Shown piece by piece: positions 4,619 to 41,958 of a stretch of 45,626 nt of DNA. The notes beneath the pieces are model-generated. The model worked only from the letters and a program-made list of their open reading frames with translations, was not told where the DNA came from and made no database searches. How positions within the stretch are numbered: position 1 is the stretch's first letter; every line of letters begins with the position of its first letter. Source of the DNA: an uncultured Candidatus Saccharibacteria bacterium (lineage in GTDB: Bacteria > Patescibacteriota > Minisyncoccia > Phycocordibacterales > UBA5272); assembly GCA_964348675.1 (NCBI GenBank), contig CAYGDF010000002.1, positions 1 to 45,626 on the forward strand, in the 5' to 3' direction. The position numbers and the translations under genes are program-made.

Positions 4619-5173
4619 TTAATGAGCGTTCATTAGTTTTTTGTAGACTTCAACTAAGGCTTTGGTGTCCGCTAGCGCTGTGTGAGCCTTACTGTTTTCT
4701 ACTTTAAGCAATTCACACAGATACTTAAGCGAAAATTTATCAGCCTGAGGAGCATCGTAAAGTCTAGCGAAAGCAATCGAAATGGTGTCTAACTTTGCGT
4801 AATGCATCCTACTTTCCACACCGGTTTCTTCAAATGCTTTTTGTACGAAAGCATAATCAAAAACTAAGTTGTGGGAAACAAAAGTACAACTCTGCGTCTT
4901 CTTAGCAAACTCTTCCATGGCTTTTTTCCTATCCACCGCAAACATCCAATCCACCTCGTTATATCCATTCACACGAAGTGCAGCGTCTTCGGCGATTTCA
5001 ATTCTTTCTGGTTTAATTTTCCATTCGCACTCTTCTAGGATTTCAATCTTCGGACCTTTTCCAGGTCTGTCAGTTTGTTTAACTATAATACATGCGAGTT
5101 CTATTATTTCATGTTTACTGGCGTCAGTCCCTGTGGTTTCTGTGTCTATAAATGCTAGGTTGTGGGTTTTCAT
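4619..5173 (-). CDS. DEDDh 3'-5' exonuclease (DnaQ / Pol III epsilon-like).
   Basis: 'FIDTETTG', 'HNLVFDYAF' and 'HTALADTKAL' are the Exo I/II/III motifs. Confidence 0.85.
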   Translation of the reverse strand: MKTHNLAFIDTETTGTDASKHEIIELACIIVKQTDRPGKGPKIEILEECEWKIKPERIEIAEDAALRVNGYNEVDWMFAVDRKKAMEEFAKKTQSCTFVSHNLVFDYAFVQKAFEETGVESRMHYAKLDTISIAFARLYDAPQADKFSLKYLCELLKVENSKAHTALADTKALVEVYKKLMNAH

Positions 5174-8821: not shown

Positions 8822-11800
8822 TCAAATTACGATATTGACCAGTTTTCCAGGGATAAAAATCTCTTTCTTAGGAATCTCCGTTCCGACGTATTTCGCATAG
8901 CCATCAAGGCTTTTTATGGCTTCTAGCACCTCTTCCTTGGTCGCCTCAGCCTTAAGTGATACTTCCCCTCTTAACTTCCCATTTACCTGAAGGGCGTAGA
9001 TTAGAGTGTCATTTATGAGTTTAGTTTCATCATATTTGGGCCAATTTTCGGTATGAATCGAGGTTTCCTCCCCAATATGCTTCCAGAGTTCCTCAGCGAT
9101 AAATGGAGCAAATGGCGAAAGCACTTTTATAAACATTTTGAAGTCATTTTTTGGTACGATTTCTTCTTTTTCATACTCATTTAGACAAATCATTAAAGAT
9201 GAAATGGCGGTATTGAATGCTGTTGTCTCAATATCATCTCCAACTTTTTTAATTGTCTTATGAGTGATAGAAAGTGTCTCGTCTTTATCTCCAACTTTTT
9301 CTTTGAGAGCATAAACTCTATCGATGAAGCGACGGATTCCGATTACTGATTTATCATCCCACGCCACCGCTTGGTCAAAAGGACCAATAAACATTTCATA
9401 CATACGAAGAGTGTCTGCTCCGAACTTTTTAACAATCTCATCTGGATTAATCACGTTACCAATCGACTTACTCATCTTCACTCCTCCTTTTCCAAGAATC
9501 ATTCCTTGTGAAGTTCTCTTAAAGTATGGCTCACTGGTCGGCGTCATGCCGATATCAAATAAAAATTTATACCAAAAACGAGAATAAAGTAAGTGAAGTG
9601 TGGTGTGTTCCATACCGCCGTTATACCAAGTAACAGGAAGCCATTTACTAAGCATTTCTTTTTCACCAATCTCCTTATCATTCTTTGGGTCAATATATCT
9701 CATGAAATACCACGACGAACCCGCCCACTGTGGCATAGTGTCTGTCTCACGACGAAACTCTTCTCCGTTTGGGTCGGTGTGGAAATATCCATCCTCATCA
9801 ATCCTCCCTTTTATGTGCACCCACTCTGGTACCTGATAAAGTGGAGACTCGCCGTTATCTGTTGGTTCATATTTATCTACCTGAGGCAGTGTGATTGGAA
9901 GTTCACTTTCATGAACTGGATGAAGTTTTCCTTCCTTATCATACACAAGAGGAATCGGTTCTCCCCAATAACGCTGGCGCGCGAAAACCCAATCGCGAAG
10001 TTTTGATTTCTTTACAAATCTACCACCAACACTTTCTGTAATTTTCTTTCTAGCTTCTTCACTTTCTAACCCGTCAAAATCACCTGAATTAAATAGAGTT
10101 CCATCTTCCGTCCAAACTTCTACACCTTTTAGATACTGTTCAAATAAAAATCTATGATGCTCCCAAGTTACTAAACCTAGAACCTCTTCCTTTTTAACTT
10201 TTAGCAACTCATGCTTTCCCTCTTCTACTTCACAGGTAACTCTTTTGTCGCTGTTTACTATGACCCCATACGCTGGACCGACCGTTCTTTGATTTTTACT
10301 CTTGGTGTGACGATACCCAAAACAAATAATTGATGGGGCAATTTTTTTAGCGATAGTAATATCTGTGAATCCTGTCTCTTCTGTTATTTCACGAGTAAGT
10401 GTTTCTTTATCTGTTTCACCTTCATCAACCCCACCCCCAGCAAGATGAATATGGTTTCCTTCTTTTTCTTTAATTAAATAATAATTACCGTCCTTATCAT
10501 ATAAAATTGGGTCAACAATATTTCTATATAGCGTTTCAACTCCGTCACGCTCTTTGTCATCACCGTCCAAAACATACTTCTTTCCAATAACGTCTATTAT
10601 TTCTATTCCATACTTCTTAGCAAATTCTCCGTCTCGCTCATCGTGCGCTGGAACTGCCATAATTGCACCCGTTCCGTAAGTGGCTAATACGTAGTCCGCG
10701 ATAAATACTGGAACTTCTTTTTTGTTTCCAGGATTAATAGCCATAACACCTTCTAACTTCACTCCAGTTTTTTCTTTTCCTTCTGCAGAACGGTCAATGT
10801 CTATTTTTTGAACTGCTTCATTTAGATATTTTTGTACCTCTTCTCTATTTTTTATTTTTCCTTCTGCGAGTAACTGCTTAACAAGCGCGTGCTCTGGGGC
10901 AAGTACACAATATGTACAACCAAACAAAGTATCCGCTCTTGTTGTATAGACAGTAAATGACTCATCGCCACTTAACCACTTTCTAAATTCTCTGTCTAAG
11001 TCATTAATTAAACCCGCATAACGAAACTCATTTGCTTGATCACCTTTGTATTCTTTCGTTTCAACGTCTAGTAGAAGTGACTCCGTTGGATATCCTTCCC
11101 AAAACTTTTCCGATTGAACTCCCTGAAGAACATATTTTCTTTGTAGTGAAACAAATCCTTTTGTACCTGTAGCGTCAGTGAAAGAAACTGCGTACTCAAA
11201 ATGCGCAGGTGAGTCCCCAACTTCTTTAACCCAATTCTTCAAAAATTCAATCACCTCTTCATCAGTTGCACGTTCAGAATCAGGATTCGCCTCTTTACGA
11301 AGATGAATCATGTAACCTTTATCCTTCGGCCATTTTTCAAGCCACAAGATATGGTCAGTAGAAATTGTGGGGATACCAGTAGCCTTGAAATAGAACTCTG
11401 ATTTTAATTTCGCATTTTCTTCAAAGTCCTGTCCTTCCACAAGTGAACTGTCGTCCACCTCAACGTCATTTAAACTTAGAAACTCAACATCTAAATCTTT
11501 CGGGAAGCACGCCGTCAACATTTGAAACTTAGCATTGTTCCTTGTTCCAATTAATATTTTCTTCTTTGAAACGAAACTTTCCGTTTTAATTTTAAAATCT
11601 ATCTCGCTTCCTTCTGAAAGTCCTATCCAATTTCTTTGTTGAATTTTTATTCTTTCCAAAAATTCCGTGTCGTCTAAATCTTTGGCTAACCTCTCAGCGT
11701 ATTTTGTAATGGCAAGCATCCATTGTTCTTTATTTCTTTTCTCAACCGGAGTTCCGCAACGTTCGCATTTTCCGTCCACCACTTCTTCGTTAGCCAGAAC

Positions 11801-12292
11801 ACACTTGTCTTTCGGACACCAGTTAACTGGCATCTCTTTTTTATAAGCCAAACCCTTTTCGTAAAGTTTAAGGAAAATCCACTGAGTCCATTTGTAATAC
11901 TCTGGATCTGTCGTATCTACTTCTCTATCCCAATCAAAAGAAAAACCGCAGGCTTTTAACTGTTCACGAAATGTACTTATATTTTCACGCGTTGTGATTG
12001 ATGGATGAATTCCAGTTTTAATGGCGTAATTTTCAGCAGGTAATCCAAAAGCGTCCCAGCCAATTGGAAACATGGTTTCAAATCCTTCCATGCGACGCTT
12101 TCTAACAATCACATCCATTCCCGTATAACTTCTAACATGCCCAACGTGAAGCCCGGCACCCGAAGGGTACGGAAATTCTACAAGACCGTAAAATGTTGGT
12201 TTAGAACTGTGAGTATCTGTTCTGTAGGTATTTTCTTTTTCCCATTTTTCTTTCCAATATTTTTCAACAGCAAGGTGATCGTAAGGATTCAT
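8822..12292 (-). CDS. leuS: Leucyl-tRNA synthetase with two large domain insertions (Ham1/ITPase-like and Nudix).
   Basis: 'PYPSGAGLHVGH' (HIGH), 'VKMSKS', editing-domain 'TTRADTLFG' and 'RDWVFARQRYWGEPIP'. At 1156 aa it is longer than the roughly 800-860 aa typical of bacteria. Confidence 0.95.
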   Translation of the reverse strand: MNPYDHLAVEKYWKEKWEKENTYRTDTHSSKPTFYGLVEFPYPSGAGLHVGHVRSYTGMDVIVRKRRMEGFETMFPIGWDAFGLPAENYAIKTGIHPSITTRENISTFREQLKACGFSFDWDREVDTTDPEYYKWTQWIFLKLYEKGLAYKKEMPVNWCPKDKCVLANEEVVDGKCERCGTPVEKRNKEQWMLAITKYAERLAKDLDDTEFLERIKIQQRNWIGLSEGSEIDFKIKTESFVSKKKILIGTRNNAKFQMLTACFPKDLDVEFLSLNDVEVDDSSLVEGQDFEENAKLKSEFYFKATGIPTISTDHILWLEKWPKDKGYMIHLRKEANPDSERATDEEVIEFLKNWVKEVGDSPAHFEYAVSFTDATGTKGFVSLQRKYVLQGVQSEKFWEGYPTESLLLDVETKEYKGDQANEFRYAGLINDLDREFRKWLSGDESFTVYTTRADTLFGCTYCVLAPEHALVKQLLAEGKIKNREEVQKYLNEAVQKIDIDRSAEGKEKTGVKLEGVMAINPGNKKEVPVFIADYVLATYGTGAIMAVPAHDERDGEFAKKYGIEIIDVIGKKYVLDGDDKERDGVETLYRNIVDPILYDKDGNYYLIKEKEGNHIHLAGGGVDEGETDKETLTREITEETGFTDITIAKKIAPSIICFGYRHTKSKNQRTVGPAYGVIVNSDKRVTCEVEEGKHELLKVKKEEVLGLVTWEHHRFLFEQYLKGVEVWTEDGTLFNSGDFDGLESEEARKKITESVGGRFVKKSKLRDWVFARQRYWGEPIPLVYDKEGKLHPVHESELPITLPQVDKYEPTDNGESPLYQVPEWVHIKGRIDEDGYFHTDPNGEEFRRETDTMPQWAGSSWYFMRYIDPKNDKEIGEKEMLSKWLPVTWYNGGMEHTTLHLLYSRFWYKFLFDIGMTPTSEPYFKRTSQGMILGKGGVKMSKSIGNVINPDEIVKKFGADTLRMYEMFIGPFDQAVAWDDKSVIGIRRFIDRVYALKEKVGDKDETLSITHKTIKKVGDDIETTAFNTAISSLMICLNEYEKEEIVPKNDFKMFIKVLSPFAPFIAEELWKHIGEETSIHTENWPKYDETKLINDTLIYALQVNGKLRGEVSLKAEATKEEVLEAIKSLDGYAKYVGTEIPKKEIFIPGKLVNIVI

Positions 12293-28227: not shown

Positions 28228-28635
28228 ATGGACGCAAACAAACCACTTTCAAAAAGACAAATACAAATTTCACTCGAAGTTCAAGCAATCGCTCAGGATT
28301 TTTTCCAGCGTGAATCTTCAGGCGCGTCGCTTATCACAGTTACTCGCGCAGAGGTTTCTTCTGACATGAAGCATGGAACAGTTTTTATCACAGCACTTCC
28401 TGAAAGCAAAGAACCTGCCGCACTAGACTTTGCAAAGCGTATGCGAAGCGAACTTCGTCATTACGTCATGAAGAGACTTCCAGTAAAAGTAATTCCATTT
28501 TTTGAAGTAGAGATAGACTACGGAGAAAAGAATCGCCTACACGTAGACGAACTATTAAGAAAAGAAAAGCAATCAAATAAGGAATATCAGGAGAAACATA
28601 AAGACGTTTTAGAAAGTATGAAGGAGGAAAACTAA
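28228..28635 (+). CDS. rbfA: Ribosome-binding factor A.
   Basis: Position after infB, 'LITVTRAEVSSDMKHGTVFI', and a downstream bidirectional terminator (28636-28668). Confidence 0.85.
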   Translation: MDANKPLSKRQIQISLEVQAIAQDFFQRESSGASLITVTRAEVSSDMKHGTVFITALPESKEPAALDFAKRMRSELRHYVMKRLPVKVIPFFEVEIDYGEKNRLHVDELLRKEKQSNKEYQEKHKDVLESMKEEN

Positions 28636-28670
28636 AAAACACGAACTTGTCACAAGTTTGTGTTTTTTAG

Positions 28671-28840
28671 TTCATGTGCCCAGGGCGGGACTCGGTCACA
28701 AAACTACCTCGTCGCAAGCTCCTCGAAGTAGTTTCGCGACCCCTATTCTCGTCCCCGCAAATGACGAAGGTCATTTGCTCTCAATTGACACAGTGAATAC
28801 AAAAGAGCCAACAAAATCAGTTGGCTCTTTTGTATTCATG
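28671..28840 (-). other. Structured element A, downstream of tRNA-Leu(TAA). It ends in a 24-nt exact copy of the tRNA 3' end.
   Basis: 28671-28694 is identical to 28835-28858 (ttcatgtgcccagggcgggactcg). It has a 17-18 bp hairpin at 28795-28837 and shares conserved blocks with element B (ggtcacaaa; ttcgcgacccctattc at 28733-28748). Confidence 0.7.
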
Positions 28841-28923
28841 TGCCCAGGGCGGGACTCGAACCCGCACGCTGTAACCAGCTGAGGATTTTAAGTCCTCTAT
28901 GTCTACCATTCCATCACCCGGGC
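28841..28923 (-). tRNA. tRNA-Leu (TAA).
   Basis: Reverse complement gcccgggtgatggaatggtagac..ggacttaaaatcc..long variable arm..gcgggttcgagtcccgc cctgggc a. Confidence 0.9.
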
Positions 28924-28954
28924 AAATAATAACAAAGTCTATTCTAACACAGTT

Positions 28955-29581
28955 CTAATTTTTCCTCCTCCCTACAACCAAATAAAGGATAGTCGCGAAT
29001 AATCCACCGGACGTATCCATGAGTATGTCTTTTTGTGCATCCCAAATATCACCCTGTGACCCAAGCACCGCAAGACCCGCCTCTGGGTCTCCACTTATTG
29101 CATAGCGCCATTCAAATAACTCATAAAAGGCAGCTATGGCTGGTATTATCATAAACGCAGAAAAATATGCATACCATTTCTTATTCACGACTTTATATTT
29201 TAAGAGCGCCTCTATAAGAGGGTATGCATATAATCCGACGGTGGCATGCGCTACACGGTCGTACATATTTCTTTCGAAGCCGAAAAAGTTGTTAAACCAA
29301 TCAAACGGCACCAACGCAAATGTGTAATGTCCTCCCCATGTGTGCATGAATATAAGGATACTCATCAAGAGGTAGGAAATATTAGAAAACCTCACCTTCT
29401 TGTAATACAAGATTATAAGTATCAAAACTATTGGGATGATGGTAAGGTTTTCTATACGCCACGCATCTCTGTCATAAGGCGATATTGCCAGTAAAGAAAA
29501 TTCCACTATATAAACTAAAAGTAGTGCGTGAGGAAAATATTTTTGTATTACTTGCATATATTTAGTATAGCAAGTAAACAT
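28955..29581 (-). CDS. DUF2238 (YjdF-like) inner membrane protein.
   Basis: Multi-TM protein with 'HTWGGHYTFALVPFDWF...FERNMYDRVAH'. The real start may be the internal ATG at 29557. Confidence 0.7.
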   Translation of the reverse strand: MFTCYTKYMQVIQKYFPHALLLVYIVEFSLLAISPYDRDAWRIENLTIIPIVLILIILYYKKVRFSNISYLLMSILIFMHTWGGHYTFALVPFDWFNNFFGFERNMYDRVAHATVGLYAYPLIEALLKYKVVNKKWYAYFSAFMIIPAIAAFYELFEWRYAISGDPEAGLAVLGSQGDIWDAQKDILMDTSGGLFATILYLVVGRRKN

Positions 29582-29588
29582 TTATTCG

Positions 29589-29727
29589 TGAGACGCAGGC
29601 GGGAGTCGGTCACAAAGTCTAGTTTCGCGAGTACGCGAAACAGAAGACTTCGCGACCCCTATTCGACACCCGACAGAAATGAAGCAGTTCATTTCTTCCT
29701 GCGTCTTAAAAAACGCTTCGCTTATTT
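29589..29727 (-). other. Structured element B, downstream of tRNA-Cys. It ends in a 20-nt exact copy of the tRNA 3' end.
   Basis: 29589-29608 is identical to 29728-29747 (tgagacgcaggcgggagtcg). It shares ggtcacaaa and ttcgcgacccctattc (29649-29664) with element A and has covarying stems. Confidence 0.7.
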
Positions 29728-29729
29728 TG

Positions 29730-29803
29730 AGACGCAGGCGGGAGTCGAACCCGCGAATGGTGGTTTTGCAAACCACAGCGTTAGGCCACTTCGCCACTGC
29801 GTC
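29730..29803 (-). tRNA. tRNA-Cys (GCA).
   Basis: Reverse complement gacgcag tg gcgaagtggc..ggtttgcaaaacc..gcgggttcgactcccgc ctgcgtc t. U73 is the discriminator expected for Cys. Confidence 0.9.
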
Positions 29804-29902
29804 TTATCTTTTTCTTTCAAAAAGTTTTTCTATTTTAGCACATTTAACTAAACTACTCTAGAAAAATTTCTCGTGGCGTGGTATAGTATCCTCCACATAA
29901 AT

Positions 29903-29975
29903 GCCCCTATAGCTCAGCTGGTAGAGCATCGGACTCTTAATCCGCAGGTCGTAGGTTCGATCCCTACTGGGGGCA
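29903..29975 (+). tRNA. tRNA-Lys (CTT).
   Basis: gcccctatagctcagctggtagagc..ggactcttaatccg..gtaggttcgatccctac tgggggc a. Confidence 0.9.
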
Positions 29976-29978
29976 CAA

Positions 29979-31989: not shown

Positions 31990-32270
31990 GCGACGCACCA
32001 CCACCGAGAAAGCCACCGATGCTTTGTCGGTGGTTTTCATTTCAAGATAACTATATTAAGTATGTTAAAATATATGAACAATTAAATATTGGGACCTAAC
32101 CCCTTCGTAAGAAGGATATGGTCTAAAATCCGTCCAAAGTAAAGATCTCCTAGTCAGAGGCTACTTTGGACGGTTATGCTCGGAAACGGGTATAGGCACT
32201 CCCTACGGGGTTTGCCGGCGCTGGCTAGGAGTTTTTTGCTACCTGGCTATTATTAAATAAAACCGTCCAA

Positions 32271-33159: not shown

Positions 33160-34101
33160 ATGAAGAAAGCTCTAGCGATAGGTATTGATAACTACCCCAC
33201 TTCACCCTTAACGGGGTGCGCTAATGACGCTTCTTCATTTGCCGCAATTATAGAAAGTAACGGAGATGGATCTCCAAACTTTGATATTGTGGTACAGAAT
33301 AATGTTGCCACTAAAGCGGAACTAAAGAAAGCCATTGTAGAGCTCTTCAGTGGAGATAACGATACCGCTATCTTTTATTTTTCAGGACACGGCACTATGA
33401 ATGGCTTAGGTGGATATATCGTTACGCCAGACGCCCAACAATATGATGAAGGGGTTTCAATGGATGAAATTCTAGTTATTGCAAATAAGTCTAAAACAAA
33501 AAACAAGATCATAATTTTAGATTGTTGTTATTCAGGCGCTATGGGTTCACCTGAATTCTTAGGAGGATCTACTTCACAAATAAATGAAGGTCTTGTTATT
33601 CTTACTGCTTCCAAGAAAGACGAACTTGCCACTATGTCTAACGGGCGAAGCCTATTCACAGATCTTCTTCTAGATGGTCTACAGGGTGGCGCCGCTGATC
33701 TTATGGGGAGCGTAACACCTGGTAGTTTATACGCATACATTGATCAAGCGCTTGGTGCGTGGGAGCAAAGACCTGTTTTCAAAACTAACGTTACAAATTT
33801 TACTGCATTAAGAGTAGTTTCGGCAAAAGTGCCGATAGCAAATTTAAGGAAACTAACTACCTACTTTCCTAATCCTACAGATGTATATCAACTTGATCCC
33901 AGTTATGAGTTTACAAATACGGGTGTTGCTATTGATGCAAACGTGGCTATTTTCAAAGATCTTCAAAAGTTTCAGAGTGTAAATCTTGTTGTGCCAGTTG
34001 ATGCAGAATTTATGTATTTCGCTGCCCAGAATTCCAAATCTTGTAAGCTAACAGCTTTAGGGGCGCATTACTGGAGGTTAGTTAAGAATAAGCGCATTTA
34101 G
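33160..34101 (+). CDS. Caspase-like (peptidase C14 / metacaspase-fold) protease with an uncharacterised C-terminal domain.
   Basis: 'AIFYFSGHG' (His77) and 'IIILDCCYSGAMG' (Cys122/123) form the catalytic dyad. The ATG is 2 nt after the TIR-like stop. Confidence 0.8.
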   Translation: MKKALAIGIDNYPTSPLTGCANDASSFAAIIESNGDGSPNFDIVVQNNVATKAELKKAIVELFSGDNDTAIFYFSGHGTMNGLGGYIVTPDAQQYDEGVSMDEILVIANKSKTKNKIIILDCCYSGAMGSPEFLGGSTSQINEGLVILTASKKDELATMSNGRSLFTDLLLDGLQGGAADLMGSVTPGSLYAYIDQALGAWEQRPVFKTNVTNFTALRVVSAKVPIANLRKLTTYFPNPTDVYQLDPSYEFTNTGVAIDANVAIFKDLQKFQSVNLVVPVDAEFMYFAAQNSKSCKLTALGAHYWRLVKNKRI

Positions 34102-34107
34102 TATGTT

Positions 34108-35745
34108 ATGGCCTCTCCTACGTCACCAGAGGAACTCCTAGAGCTCCTAAAATCGGCCCAGAATGAAAAAGATGCTTATACCCCTGAAAAGTATAAGTAT
34201 GTAATTTATGTTCGTAAATCAACAGATGAAACCGGAAAGCAAATCCGGTCTATTGATGACCAGATAGCTGAGTGTAAGGATTTTGCAGAAAGGAATGACT
34301 TAAAGTTTATAGACATAATTGCTGAAGCAGAAAGCGCAAAGGAGCCAGGAATACGTCCTAAGTTTGCAAAAATGCTTCAAGAAATAAATACAGGTAAATA
34401 CCAAGGTATTATAGCTTGGCACCCGGATAGACTTGCTCGCAATATGAAAGAAGCTGGGGAAGTAATAGACCTTGTAGATAAAGATATAATTAAGGATCTA
34501 AAGTTTGTTAGTTTCACTTTTAATAATGATCCAAGTGGAAAACTTTTGCTTGGTATCACTTTTGCTCTATCAAAAGAATATTCTGACAAGTTAAGCATAA
34601 ATGTTAAAAGAGGTAATCGGCAAAGTATCGGTGAAGGCAAGTATGTAAACAAATCTAAACACGGATATATAAAGGATGTAAATGGTTACCTAAGACCTGA
34701 TGAAAATAATTTTGTATTACTGAAAACTGCTTTTCAAATGAGGTTAAAAGGCTCAACATTAGAGCAACTATCTGATTTTCTTATCTCTAACAGCTATTTT
34801 CATCGGAATACTGTGGACGCAAGTAAGTATTACAAGATGAACAAAGCAAAAATGCAGGTAATTCTTAAAGATCCTGTATATACAGGAGTTTTACAATATG
34901 GAGAAAATGTAGTGAACCTTATGGACCATTATGATTTTATTCCGATGGTTACCGTTAATGAGTTTATGCAGATAAATAACCTTTCGGCCAATAGCCAGTT
35001 AATTAAGTTGGCAAAGAGTTATAAGAAAGGTGAAGATGTTAAGGCTAATCTCTTACGGGACGCGGTAATTTGTGGGGAATGCAACGAACCAATGACAGCC
35101 GGTATTACGAATAAAAAGAACAAGAATACTGGCAAGATCACCAGATACTTCTATTACAGATGTGATACCGAAGATTGTATTAGGGAAGGTAAATCAGTGA
35201 GAGCAAAGGTTATAGTTAGTTATGTCTTAAATCTACTAAAGAAAAAACCTTTTTCTTCTGTGGAAAGCTATGACCACTACAAGGAGGAAATCAAGAAAGT
35301 AAACAAGGAACGTATTGTAACAGCTAAGCATAAGCTTCTTTCTCTTCAAACAGAAAGAGGAAAGGCTAATGAGAGAATTGAGAAAATTAAGGATGTTTTT
35401 CTAGATAGAGAAATAGGAGATGAGATGAAAAGGCATTACTCGGGTGATATAGAAAAGATAGAAAAGAGGTTAGTTGAAATTGAGGAAGAAGAAAAGAAAA
35501 CACGAAAAATCTATGAGAATGACAAGGAAAGTATCTTAACTCAAGAAAAGTTCCTTGAACTTATGGATAATACCCATACAATACTAGCTTCTATCAAGAA
35601 TATGGCTGAATTAGACTTTTACTTGAGAAAGTTCTTCTTGAACTTTACTATAAAAGACGAAATAGTATATAAATCAACGTTTAATAAACCTTTTGACCGC
35701 CTTGCGGACCAAAAAGTATTGAATGGTGCCCGGGAAAGGACTTGA
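34108..35745 (+). CDS. Large serine recombinase (resolvase domain, recombinase domain, zinc ribbon and coiled coil).
   Basis: 'YVIYVRKSTDETGKQ..SIDDQ' catalytic Ser region, 'AWHPDRLARN', and 'CGECNEPM...YYRCDTEDC'. Its 3' end overlaps tRNA-Leu(TAG). Confidence 0.85.
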   Translation: MASPTSPEELLELLKSAQNEKDAYTPEKYKYVIYVRKSTDETGKQIRSIDDQIAECKDFAERNDLKFIDIIAEAESAKEPGIRPKFAKMLQEINTGKYQGIIAWHPDRLARNMKEAGEVIDLVDKDIIKDLKFVSFTFNNDPSGKLLLGITFALSKEYSDKLSINVKRGNRQSIGEGKYVNKSKHGYIKDVNGYLRPDENNFVLLKTAFQMRLKGSTLEQLSDFLISNSYFHRNTVDASKYYKMNKAKMQVILKDPVYTGVLQYGENVVNLMDHYDFIPMVTVNEFMQINNLSANSQLIKLAKSYKKGEDVKANLLRDAVICGECNEPMTAGITNKKNKNTGKITRYFYYRCDTEDCIREGKSVRAKVIVSYVLNLLKKKPFSSVESYDHYKEEIKKVNKERIVTAKHKLLSLQTERGKANERIEKIKDVFLDREIGDEMKRHYSGDIEKIEKRLVEIEEEEKKTRKIYENDKESILTQEKFLELMDNTHTILASIKNMAELDFYLRKFFLNFTIKDEIVYKSTFNKPFDRLADQKVLNGARERT

Positions 35746-35808
35746 ACCTTCATGAGTTGCCTCGCTTGCTCCTAAGGCAAGTGCGTCTACCAATTTCGCC
35801 ACCCGGGC
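35724..35808 (-). tRNA. tRNA-Leu (TAG), with CCA encoded.
   Basis: Reverse complement gcccgggtggcgaaattggtagacgc a cttgc cttagga gcaag ..variable arm.. gaaggttcaagtccttt cccgggc a cca. Confidence 0.9.
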
Positions 35809-39523: not shown

Positions 39524-41749
39524 ATGAAATTACTTATCGTAGAAAGCCCGTCGAAGGCTAAAACAATTGCGAAATATTTAGGAAGCGAGTACGAAGTACG
39601 CGCCTCTGTTGGTCATATCAGAGATTTGCCAAAGAGTAATAAGAAAGCAATCGATATCGAAGGTGGTTTTATTCCTCACTATGAAGTATCTCCTGGGAAA
39701 GAAAAAGTTGTAAGCGAACTTAAATCCCTTTCAAAAAAGGCTTCAGAAATTCTCCTCGCAACCGACCCCGACCGTGAAGGAGAGGCTATCGCTTGGCACA
39801 TAAAAGAAGCAATTGGTCTAAAGGATGCCAAACGTGTTGCCTTCCATGAAATTACCGAAAGTGCTATTAAAGAAGCGATTAAACACCCTCGTGAAATAGA
39901 TAACAATTTAAAAGAAGCCCAGGAAGCACGTCGCGTACTAGATAGACTTGTAGGTTATGACTTGTCTGGAATCATTTGGAAAAAAGTTCGATACGGACTT
40001 TCTGCAGGTCGTGTACAATCCCCCGCGCTTCGCATAGTCATGGAACGCGAACGCGAAATCCGCGCGTTTATTCCTGAGACATATTTCGTCTTAGCTGGTG
40101 AATGGAAGACAGAAGGAAAAATAAAAGAAAGCAAAACCTACACCCTTGCTATGGAGTGCGAGGAACAACCAAAAGTAAAAGATGAGGCCGAGAGAATTGT
40201 AAAACTTGGTCGCGCACACGAATGGGAAGTAACCGCACTTGATAGTACAGAGGTCTCTCGCTCCCCTCGTGCGCCATTTACTACTTCCACCCTTCAGCAA
40301 ACCGCTAGTTCACGTTTAGGATACGCTCCATCACGCACGATGGGTATCGCGCAGAAACTTTATGAAAAAGGTTTGATTACCTACATGCGTACAGACAGCA
40401 CCACTCTTTCAAACCAAGCGCTTGGTGAAATCGCCACAACCGTTGAAAGCATGTTCGGTAAAAATTTCTTGGAAGTTAGAACATACAAAACAAAATCAAA
40501 AAACGCCCAAGAAGCCCATGAAGCGATTCGTCCGACTCATGCGAGCACTCGTAATGGCGGAACAACTGACGATGAAAAAAGATTATATTCTCTAATTTGG
40601 GAAAGAACTGTCGCGTCACAAATGAAAGATGCGAAATTAAAGAGAAGCAAAGTAACTACAAACATTATAGGCTCAAAAGAAAAAATCCCAGACTTTTCTG
40701 TAACTGGTTCAGTGGTAACTTTCCAAGGATGGTTAATCGCTGATCCAGATGCCAAAGGTGATGATGTACAACTTCCAGAACTTACTATCAGCGACCCACT
40801 TAAACTTCTCACCCTTCAATCAATAGAAAAGCAAACTCAACCGCCTTCACGTTATACAGAAGCTGGATTAATCAAAGAACTTGAAAAGCGTGGAATCGGA
40901 CGCCCTTCTACTTATGCTTCTATCATTTCTACTATCGAAGACCGTGGGTATGTAGATAAGATAAATAAAGCACTTCATCCAACAGATACAGGTGAAGTGG
41001 TTACGACATTTCTAGAACAAGAACTTGGTCAGTACATTTCAGATACTTTCACGGCAGACATGGAAGACAAGTTGGATAAGATTGCCAATGGTGAAGCAAC
41101 ATATTTAAAAACTCTCACGGATTTCTACGGACCATTTTTGAAAGATGTTAAGAGTAAGGACAAATTAGAAAAAGCGACAAATCTAGGTGAAGCACCTGAC
41201 GATTTGCTTTGTCCACTTTGTGATTCAAAGATGGTGATTAAACTCGCAAAGAATGGAAAGTTTTATTCCTGTTCAAAATATCCAGAGTGTAAGGGTGCAC
41301 GTAAAATAGACGGCACAATAATGGAAGGGCCAAAGATGCTAGGAAGAGAATGTCCGAAGTGTGGAAAAGGAGAACTCATGGAGCGTGACGGACGATACGG
41401 TAAATTCATAGCGTGTTCAAACTATCCAAAGTGTAAATATATAGAACAAGATGAAGAACTAAGAAAAGCCAACTCAACCGGAGTAAGTTGTAATAAATGT
41501 AAAGACGGATACATGGAAGAAAGAAAAGGACGTTTCGGGGTATTCTATTCTTGTTCAAACTACCCTGACTGTAAACACATTATAAAAACCAGACCCACTG
41601 GCCATCGTTGTAATTACAAAAAAGCCGACGGCACTATTTGTGGAGAACTAATGATGGAAGGGACAAAGACGATTCCAGAGCGTTGCAGTGATAAACTCTG
41701 CCCCAATCACAACCCCCACAAGCTCGAGCAAGATAAGAGTAAGAAATAA
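39524..41749 (+). CDS. topA: DNA topoisomerase I with C-terminal zinc-ribbon repeats. The last roughly 25 codons are a GC-recoded replacement.
   Basis: TOPRIM 'LLIVESPSKAKTI' and 'DPDREGEAI', catalytic Tyr region 'ITYMRTDS', and four CxxC...CxxC fingers. Confidence 0.95.
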   Translation: MKLLIVESPSKAKTIAKYLGSEYEVRASVGHIRDLPKSNKKAIDIEGGFIPHYEVSPGKEKVVSELKSLSKKASEILLATDPDREGEAIAWHIKEAIGLKDAKRVAFHEITESAIKEAIKHPREIDNNLKEAQEARRVLDRLVGYDLSGIIWKKVRYGLSAGRVQSPALRIVMEREREIRAFIPETYFVLAGEWKTEGKIKESKTYTLAMECEEQPKVKDEAERIVKLGRAHEWEVTALDSTEVSRSPRAPFTTSTLQQTASSRLGYAPSRTMGIAQKLYEKGLITYMRTDSTTLSNQALGEIATTVESMFGKNFLEVRTYKTKSKNAQEAHEAIRPTHASTRNGGTTDDEKRLYSLIWERTVASQMKDAKLKRSKVTTNIIGSKEKIPDFSVTGSVVTFQGWLIADPDAKGDDVQLPELTISDPLKLLTLQSIEKQTQPPSRYTEAGLIKELEKRGIGRPSTYASIISTIEDRGYVDKINKALHPTDTGEVVTTFLEQELGQYISDTFTADMEDKLDKIANGEATYLKTLTDFYGPFLKDVKSKDKLEKATNLGEAPDDLLCPLCDSKMVIKLAKNGKFYSCSKYPECKGARKIDGTIMEGPKMLGRECPKCGKGELMERDGRYGKFIACSNYPKCKYIEQDEELRKANSTGVSCNKCKDGYMEERKGRFGVFYSCSNYPDCKHIIKTRPTGHRCNYKKADGTICGELMMEGTKTIPERCSDKLCPNHNPHKLEQDKSKK

Positions 41750-41883
41750 ACTGGCTCTGGAAAGTAGACAACCTGCGTTGTCTACGACGTCTTTGTCTGG
41801 CGGAGAGTTATGAGGCTAGCAAGCCGAATCGCGAGCCGGGGTCGAGGAAATTTCGAGCGACGGCGAGAAATTAACCGTGACCG

Positions 41884-41958
41884 AAGACGATTCCAGAAAG
41901 ATGTTCTAACAAAACTTGTCCAAATCATAATCCTCATAAACTAGAAACTAAGAAATAG
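41884..41958 (+). pseudogene. Displaced native 3' end of topA (AT-rich remnant).
   Basis: It encodes KTIPERCSNKTCPNHNPHKLETKK*, compared with the functional end KTIPERCSDKLCPNHNPHKLEQDKSKK*. The 14-nt repeat aagacgattccaga occurs at 41666-41679 and 41884-41897. Confidence 0.8.

Follow-up and report, generated by a model that had tools for sequence, protein, structure and literature searches.

Integrative elements that target tRNA genes (islands, prophages and CIME-type remnants) carry a 3' segment of their own with which the tRNA is regenerated. The attC sites of integrons and attP(+) of CTX phage act as folded single-stranded DNA (ssDNA), and their enzyme is supplied in trans. In IS200/IS605 elements, which lack long direct repeats, the guides comprise about 4 nt and recognition takes place on the 5' side of the insertion point; in the bridge (seek) RNA of IS110/IS1111 and in the pairing of exon- and intron-binding sites (EBS-IBS) of group II introns, guide segments around a hairpin or an internal loop choose the target. 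In this study, a 45,626-nt stretch of an uncultured Candidatus Saccharibacteria bacterium (assembly GCA_964348675.1, contig CAYGDF010000002.1; the whole stretch is called the window below) was analysed, in which two structured units, elements A and B, follow the genes for tRNA-Leu(TAA) and tRNA-Cys(GCA), and a third copy lies inside the 3' end of topA. The reading that we favour, with a probability of about 0.58, is that they are non-autonomous, protein-less, horizontally moving, site-specific insertion elements, which bring with them a replacement 3' end for the target gene and whose single-strand fold serves as the mobility module. They belong to an apparently undescribed family of strongly folded insertion elements of 100-170 nt, encoding no protein, of the Candidate Phyla Radiation (CPR), mostly in Paceibacteria-type genomes.

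The window is a chromosome segment of the CPR/Patescibacteria type (with genes for LeuRS, ClpB, a short IF2, RbfA, TopA, DprA and RelA). Read in tRNA sense, the order of parts is the tRNA up to T55, X, H0, X'a, AG, H1, CG, X'b, A, core and the second direct repeat (DR2). X, the proximal repeat (DR1), extends at tRNA genes from C56 to the discriminator and then through CA and an A-rich trailer, 3' of which stands H0, a terminator-like hairpin with a U-run. X'a and X'b, two segments of 8-10 nt that flank H1, are complementary to the first ~17-20 nt of X: X'a to the acceptor 3' strand with its discriminator and on through CA and the trailer, and X'b to tRNA positions 56-65. H1 has a variable stem of 8-9 bp and the loop CUGC. 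The core consists of the bulge GAAUAGGG (AUAGGG), followed by P2 (GUCGCGAA.../...UUUGUGAC), a helix with two fixed G-U pairs that encloses a variable hairpin occurring in discrete sequence variants, and it ends in YUGUGAC. Directly 3' of the core lies DR2, the displaced end of the resident gene. The parts of the two tRNA-linked insertions are as follows.

28840-28923, minus strand: tRNA-Leu(TAA) (ARAGORN and Rfam), whose last 18 nt, from C56, are part of the proximal repeat X/DR1
28695-28858, minus strand: element A, inserted unit of 164 nt (sequence, repeats, covariance-model match of 95.8 bits, fold)
28835-28858, minus strand: X/DR1 of element A
28794-28812 and 28820-28838, minus strand: arms of the terminator-like hairpin H0 of element A
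about 28781-28793, minus strand: X'a of element A, degenerate
28757-28778, minus strand: H1 of element A
28747-28756, minus strand: X'b of element A
28695-28746, minus strand: core of element A (AUAGGG bulge and P2 hairpin ending in UUUGUGAC)
28671-28694, minus strand: DR2-A, displaced 3' end of tRNA-Leu (C56 to A73 and CATGAA; 24-nt exact repeat)
28630-28672: second, bidirectional terminator after DR2-A (inverted repeat)
29729-29803, minus strand: tRNA-Cys(GCA) (ARAGORN and Rfam)
29609-29747, minus strand: element B, inserted unit of 139 nt (sequence, repeats, covariance-model match of 88.3 bits, fold)
29728-29747, minus strand: X/DR1 of element B
about 29708-29727, minus strand: GCGAAGC mini-hairpin spacer of element B
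29698-29707, minus strand: X'a of element B, AAGACGCAGG
29675-29696, minus strand: H1 of element B
29663-29674, minus strand: X'b of element B
29609-29662, minus strand: core of element B
29589-29608, minus strand: DR2-B, displaced 3' end of tRNA-Cys (sequence, exact repeat)

An earlier note on this DNA, made from its letters alone, had reported that each element ends in an exact copy of the 3' end of its own tRNA, and this holds to the letter: 28671-28694 equals 28835-28858 (24 nt), 29589-29608 equals 29728-29747 (20 nt), and both repeats start at the same place in the T-loop, C56 (TT|CGA). The homology of A and B that it had proposed is likewise upheld, and both are structured. The 16-mer GAATAGGGGTCGCGAA, named there as common to both, occurs in the window in these two elements only (with up to three mismatches, 0.23 chance matches are expected in the window), and the same is true of TTTGTGACCGA. 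No open reading frame (ORF) was found inside A or B (139-164 nt). DR2-B adjoins the start codon of a DUF2238 gene (ORF called at 28955-29581); the trailer CACGAA that follows it is the tRNA-Cys trailer of other genomes, and the GCGAAGC spacer 3' of the window tRNA-Cys accompanies elements in other loci.

The unit sits immediately 5' of C-R-A in its target, which is tRNA position 56 or, in topA, CAA; it thereby displaces the end of the resident gene, which comes to lie downstream as DR2, and the gene stays intact through X. That the trailer and H0 belong to the element follows from the window tRNAs that carry none (Tyr, Leu-TAG and Lys), where the trailer/H0 palindrome is absent as well. X'b agrees more closely with the proximal repeat than with the distal DR2 (8.5/10 against 7.2/10, p = 8e-6). 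When the repeats were inspected for a crossover within a block of identity, those that differ (L008, L017, L022 and L063; fetched loci are given by L numbers) were found to diverge from position 56/57 onward; at topA the first 14 nt are identical. The better match to the proximal repeat and the early divergence indicate that [X-H0-X'a-H1-X'b-core] is a coherent unit lying exactly between T55 and the resident C56. In one subfamily, seen with six tRNA types, the element ends in ..GUGAC-CGAAY and the tRNA sequence continues from position 59.

The earlier note had regarded a T-stem 5' strand in both elements, and an acceptor-like 5' strand in element B, as copies of the tRNA 5' side. They are instead Watson-Crick complements of the tRNA 3' strand, which also cover the discriminator, the CA after it and the trailer; X'a must be a true complement of the 3' strand, since in tRNA-Lys, which has a U6-G67 pair, the element has C at this place. 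X'a and the acceptor part of DR2 each fall into two classes (10/10 or about 5/10), and in many copies one excludes the other; hence the acceptor-like helix is not a conserved feature. It is absent from most copies, although in the fold of element B both acceptor-like and T-like helices can form. With no conserved acceptor helix, and with the T-loop replaced by the core, the elements are not tRNA-like structures.

The fold itself is under strong constraint. RNA folding gave z-scores of -5.3 (element A) and -7.9 (element B), and both helices that the earlier note had drawn, the 9-bp hairpin (H1) and the long stem with G-U pairs (P2), were confirmed by covariation in 102 distinct copies that come from other genomes. 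In the covariance-model alignment 96.1% of paired cells are filled by pairs, compared with 76.5% in column shuffles (the observed value was reached in 0/500) and 38-45% for slid partners, and cells with double compensatory changes number 580 against 186 expected. Such changes occur at all nine pairs of H1, at 4/5 of P1 and at 9/13 of P2, whose two G-U pairs are kept in 100/102 and 90/102 copies. Outside these fixed pairs G-U exceeds A-C (69:36), and folding is better on the sense than on the antisense strand; the fold thus belongs to the single strand in tRNA sense, as had been suggested. An independent MAFFT/RNAalifold run recovered the same helices. Many loops are C-GNA-G triloops (e.g. GCGAAGC), and tandem G-A motifs are present.

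The core pattern (ATAGGGGTCGCGAA-N15-45-TTGTGAC) was searched in bacterial and archaeal contigs, one genome per species, and matched 67 loci. The full architecture was found in 65 of them, all from metagenome-assembled genomes (MAGs) of CPR bacteria, several sharing one genome, which are labelled Paceibacterota, Nomurabacteria, Parcubacteria, third-party annotation (TPA) 'Saccharibacteria' or Gracilibacteria; L004 (a Pseudomonas genome) and L050 match the pattern without the architecture. In most copies a tRNA gene on the same strand ends 32-97 nt upstream of the core, most commonly ~90-95 nt, and the elements recur at 13 or more target identities besides topA (tRNA-Lys, Pro, Gly, Asp, Cys, Leu, Ser, Trp, Val, Arg, Gln, Glu and Met). 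What follows ..GTGAC repeats the upstream tRNA, always from C56, with 3-24 nt identical. The covariance-model search proposed in the earlier note was carried out with a model built from 70 copies; in 533 kb it found 103 copies, ~30 of them without an exact match to the pattern, and the many further homologs covary. A downstream copy of the 12-mer starting at C56 is present at 66/133 distinct tRNAs, compared with 3/129 in the upstream control, in a sample biased by loci having been fetched for carrying an element; GTGAC directly precedes 46 of these 66 copies. Identical inner-hairpin variants are common to different tRNA types and different MAGs. A metagenome scan with the topA-type core returned two identical loci only, both adjoining a tRNA. 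Two small elements of the same logic, in which an unrelated core stands between a complement and a copy of the tRNA 3' end, were noticed at L069 2432-2521 (minus strand) and in L039 (minus strand, near 1150-1420), there ~300 nt downstream of tRNA-Gly(gcc); tRNA 3' ends in these genomes seem to host several such element families.

Weaker covariance-model matches proved to be elements with the same layout of H1, X' and P1 and a larger core, ..GAA GGGCCGCAG[..GCUAGCAAGC..]CGAGGGGCGG GCUGCGAG...CUUGUAGC|, whose P2 shows compensatory swaps (GUC/GAC to GCU/AGC) with the G-U pairs kept. The third window copy is of this kind and is composed as follows.

41664-41958, plus strand: third window copy, inside the 3' end of topA (covariance-model match of 21.9 bits, sequence, translations)
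41664-41749, plus strand: DR1 of topA (in-frame C-terminal 28 codons and stop)
41750-41881, plus strand: element part, directly after the topA stop codon
41755-41762, plus strand: X'a, CUCUGGAA
41765-41784, plus strand: H1
41787-41795, plus strand: X'b, ACGUCUUUG
41796-41881, plus strand: larger core ending in CCGUGAC
41882-41958, plus strand: DR2 of topA (second, intact C-terminal coding copy, TIPERCSNKTCPNHNPHKLETKK*)

The insertion point is ...GGGA|CAAAGACGAUUCCAGAG... and the stop codon lies at 41747-41749. The 17 nt that follow this point directly on its 3' side, CAAAGACG-A-UUCCAGAG, have their complement in X'a and X'b, and nothing in the copy resembles a tRNA. X and X' are tRNA sequence only when the target is a tRNA; the 'tRNA acceptor/T-arm mimic', in which the earlier note had seen the essence of the elements, is accordingly a special case, with a variable acceptor-like helix and no counterpart at topA. 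The same arrangement is present in L025, L063 and L074 (a tandem array with three C-terminal copies), X' tracks the local synonymous variants of topA there (UUCCCGAG, UACCCGAG and CAAAGACCA) as well as in the window, and the site is empty in L071, L072 and L073, relatives at 67-90% identity. In two of these topA is called as two or three consecutive ORFs (L072 1-1179 and L073 74-2271). In L003 (about 4905-4950) and L074 (about 1396-1436) two topA C-terminal copies are separated by a hairpin-only insertion of 32-45 nt, possibly the element in a minimal or deleted form.

Between genomes, the displaced topA copies differ at 103 codons synonymously and at 16 non-synonymously, a ratio of 0.16; it is 0.11 for the in-ORF copies and 0.12 for genes with an empty site. 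As the displaced copy shows no relaxed constraint, the insertions are either recent and recurrent or reversible. DR1 and DR2 of the window differ by 12 synonymous and 2 non-synonymous codons of 19. These codon comparisons show that the proximal topA copy arrived with the element, and that X at topA is of foreign origin, a horizontally derived gene end.

Comparison of orthologous tRNA-Cys, tRNA-Lys and tRNA-Leu loci (~80% identity in a neighbouring protein), which the earlier note had also recommended, showed that the presence of the element and the type of its core vary. Tandem and 5'-truncated units are common. The tRNA-Cys/tRNA-Lys pair of L068 (2199-2881), which is flanked by two oppositely oriented elements, is inverted relative to the window (29589-29976) and L069, and the two elements may have mediated this inversion. 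In L045 (3100-5180) a 2-kb block of GNAT/ASCH-like genes without a recombinase lies between two elements downstream of tRNA-Leu(caa), which hints that element units can carry cargo.

Known families and partner enzymes were sought. At the Rfam gathering score neither the three window copies nor the larger-core copies had a match, and no family covers the elements even at E <= 10, where they overlap only far-sub-threshold models of eukaryotic microRNAs, long non-coding RNAs and unrelated small RNAs. Viral contigs, GenBank phages and PLSDB plasmids gave no match to the element, and a literature search yielded nothing relevant to it, the paper on LOOT RNA included. No linked mobility gene recurs in all-against-all ORF clustering of the genome-scan loci, where only syntenic housekeeping genes were shared. 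A self-cleaving ribozyme at GAC|C was considered and set aside, as no motif or family matched; so was an intron, since the gene is completed by X and not by splicing, and the boundaries are unlike group I or group II rules. A TnpB/Cas12-like scaffold with a 3' guide was also rejected, because such a system would target its own intact proximal copy (TT + X), and its guide would be masked by X'.

Compared with tRNA-targeting integrative elements, the family has in common the regenerated tRNA, the displaced 3' repeat starting in the T-loop, tandem accretion at the same tRNA, and an insert flanked by the tRNA 3' repeat with the intact tRNA at one end. It differs in the size of its units (100-170 nt), the lack of an own integrase, the covarying single-strand fold, the internal complements of the repeat, the junction at the repeat edge and topA as a target. 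With attC and attP(+) it shares an inverse and a direct target-like core paired in one strand with a spacer between, a strand-specific imperfect hairpin whose structure is conserved over sequence, and small units in arrays. However, RYYYAAC/GTTRRRY boxes are absent from the consensus, there is no dif site, and no IntI gene recurs near the elements in the genome-scan loci; moreover, the paired arm is 17-20 nt of tRNA or topA sequence changing with the target, and the extra H1 hairpin splits the inverse copy. Single-strand hairpins, short internal guide pairing and short non-autonomous copies recall IS200/IS605 ends, palindrome-associated transposable elements (PATEs) and repetitive extragenic palindromes with their transposases (REP/RAYT), but the long repeats argue against membership and no Y1 transposase was seen in the loci. 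Target-pairing guide segments around a hairpin are also found in bridge RNAs and group II introns. Those, however, sit in elements of 1.2-2.5 kb encoding a recombinase or a reverse transcriptase, and here there is no such ORF, no catalytic-core similarity, and both guide halves read the same strand. Bacterial transposable elements of the miniature inverted-repeat type (MITEs; Correia, ERIC, RUP and bcr1) are similarly short, multi-copy, non-coding, strongly folded and mobilised in trans; the present units differ in lacking terminal inverted repeats (their ends are X and ..GUGAC) and a 2-10-bp duplication (the repeats are 18-86 nt, with a foreign proximal one at topA), and in strict insertion into gene 3' regions with replacement of the gene end. 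The first of the three readings offered by the earlier note, attR-type scars of a miniature integrative element, came closest to the evidence in its miniature tRNA-targeting integrative element; decayed scars, on the other hand, do not agree with the strongly constrained fold, and decayed GC-rich cassette ends can be dismissed.

Under the insertion-element reading, the folded single strand would be the mobility module. A three-way junction, in which X is paired to X'a and X'b, would set ...GUGAC|C at the foot of P2; in the excised form the pairing of X with X' would place a double-stranded copy of the target adjacent to the conserved core, and a trans-acting enzyme would exchange strands with the target at GUGAC|C. 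We lean slightly towards ssDNA rather than RNA as the folded strand, because C-GNA-G triloops are frequent, H0 stands between most tRNAs and the element, and promoter-like sites are missing at A and B (none was found on the tRNA-sense strand around these copies, in a region scan that was uninformative overall). C-GNA-G triloops such as GCGAAGC are very stable DNA mini-hairpins. The fixed G-U pairs and tandem G-A motifs point towards RNA. Several observations weigh against the insertion-element reading. Near-invariant G-U pairs and tandem G-A motifs are associated more with functional RNAs than with recombination sites; no recombinase, transposase or reverse transcriptase is tied to the element; and the re-specification of X and X' for a new target is without explanation. 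Neither an excised form nor a circle junction nor within-population polymorphism was observed, the protein collection holding no strain-level relatives of the window. tRNA-Cys is occupied by an element in every genome examined, which could reflect retention for a host function, and the alignment fitted with the covariance model leans towards the modelled structure.

A possible, more tentative refinement is that insertion is programmed by base pairing, X'a/X'b around H1 acting as a guide that reads the 17-20 nt target in a retargetable element, DNA or RNA, with an enzyme in trans. It is rather unlikely that the elements are host-beneficial structured non-coding RNAs, co-transcribed with or after tRNAs and other genes, whose basal helices mimic or sequester the tRNA 3' end (e.g. 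by serving RNase P, RNase Z or the CCA-adding enzyme as a tRNA-like substrate or decoy, or by regulating how precursors fold, with the repeats needed for pairing). The very strong covariation with its fixed G-U pairs, the occupancy of every tRNA-Cys, the lack of a terminator between tRNA-Cys and the element in L009, L025, L058 and L069, and the copies such as element B in which acceptor-like and T-like helices are both possible would suit such RNAs. Yet most copies lack the acceptor helix and are preceded by the U-run hairpin H0, no promoter-like site was seen at A and B, tandem arrays and truncated remnants are common, and X'b tracks the proximal repeat, not the distal one with which a stand-alone RNA would pair; the topA copy, with empty sites in relatives and a horizontally derived gene end, also speaks against a host RNA. 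An RNA-based mobile element, an X'-core transcript with X as its tail that recognises the target by exchanging X:X' pairing with the identical DNA duplex in the manner of a bacterial short interspersed element or a guide-programmed retroelement, appears improbable. Its insertion would proceed through target-primed reverse transcription, or else its 3' end (..GUGAC-OH) would attack the bond 5' of C56 as in reverse splicing. It would account for a right junction fixed at core|C56 beside a distal repeat of variable length (8 to 24 nt at tRNAs, ~77-86 nt at topA), for the bipartite complement that exists, at tRNAs and topA alike, to the sequence directly 3' of where the element inserts, for the conserved G-U pairs and for a fold that brings the element 3' end beside the 5' end of X; but the scanned loci have no recurrent gene for a reverse transcriptase, ribozyme and intron families show no similarity, the topA proximal repeat is foreign rather than a fresh target-site duplication, and C-GNA-G triloops abound.

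Larger mobile genetic elements (MGEs) occupy tRNA genes of the same genomes, and we regard it as similarly doubtful that the small elements are their leftover ends or internal-deletion derivatives, with the fold as a single-strand replication origin or an att flank. These MGEs form a ~5-kb family in which the gene for a rolling-circle Rep (G2P/Phage_CRI) precedes that for a large serine recombinase, and were located as follows.

L077 4501-6470; L078 4501-7288; L081 6001-8900: MGE loci
L080 4501-7058; L079 4501-7359; L028 751-1790: MGE loci

A tRNA gene adjoins the MGE in L078, L080 and L081, and a type I element lies at the border distal to the tRNA (in tRNA sense) in L028, L077, L078 and L081; tRNA-Leu(TAG) of the window and tRNA-Leu(TAA) of L068 are further sites of large-serine-recombinase MGEs, and a strand-specific ssDNA fold would fit a rolling-circle replicon. 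However, the pseudo-tRNA end ACTTTAAAAGTTCKGAAASCCAC..GCACA, which precedes the element in L028, L045, L077 and L081, is conserved and borne by the MGE, whereas X'b of the element matches the local tRNA; and 4/6 MGEs with an element is what nested insertion would yield where about half of the sampled tRNAs carry one. The adjacency is therefore read as nested insertion, though the MGEs may act as helpers. No element was found at the borders of the window MGE, L079 or L080, and serine recombinases use double-stranded att sites, which would not select for compensatory changes. The 3-kb insert of L028, considered as an autonomous version of the element, turned out to be a separate serine-recombinase/G2P MGE with its own pseudo-tRNA end.

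In the window, the large serine recombinase gene (34108-35745, plus strand) ends inside the 3' end of tRNA-Leu(TAG) (35724-35808, minus strand), beside a gene for a caspase-like C14 peptidase (33160-34101). This has the look of an MGE integrated separately; in the window the tRNA-Leu(TAG) end was found only once. A LOOT RNA (RF03000, 73.8 bits), unrelated to the elements in sequence, lies at 32093-32212 (plus strand), upstream of the genes that adjoin this MGE. Elsewhere, the LeuRS gene (8822-12292, minus strand, 1156 aa) has, between the catalytic and the editing part, inserted stretches that match Ham1-like and NUDIX domains.

Elements that accompany about half of the tRNA genes in the (biased) sampled loci had no match in Rfam, phages, plasmids or the literature searched. 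They combine three features not known together, namely gene-end replacement, a covarying strand-specific fold and internal complements that track the target; the first recalls integrative islands, and the fold recalls attC sites or functional RNAs. If the elements are guide-directed, they would represent mobile elements of a new, guide-directed class, perhaps a minimal module for programmable integration, and a very small natural template for programmable insertion, and would offer a new view of CPR genome dynamics as well. If they are host RNAs instead, they would be among the most abundant unknown RNA families of the CPR.

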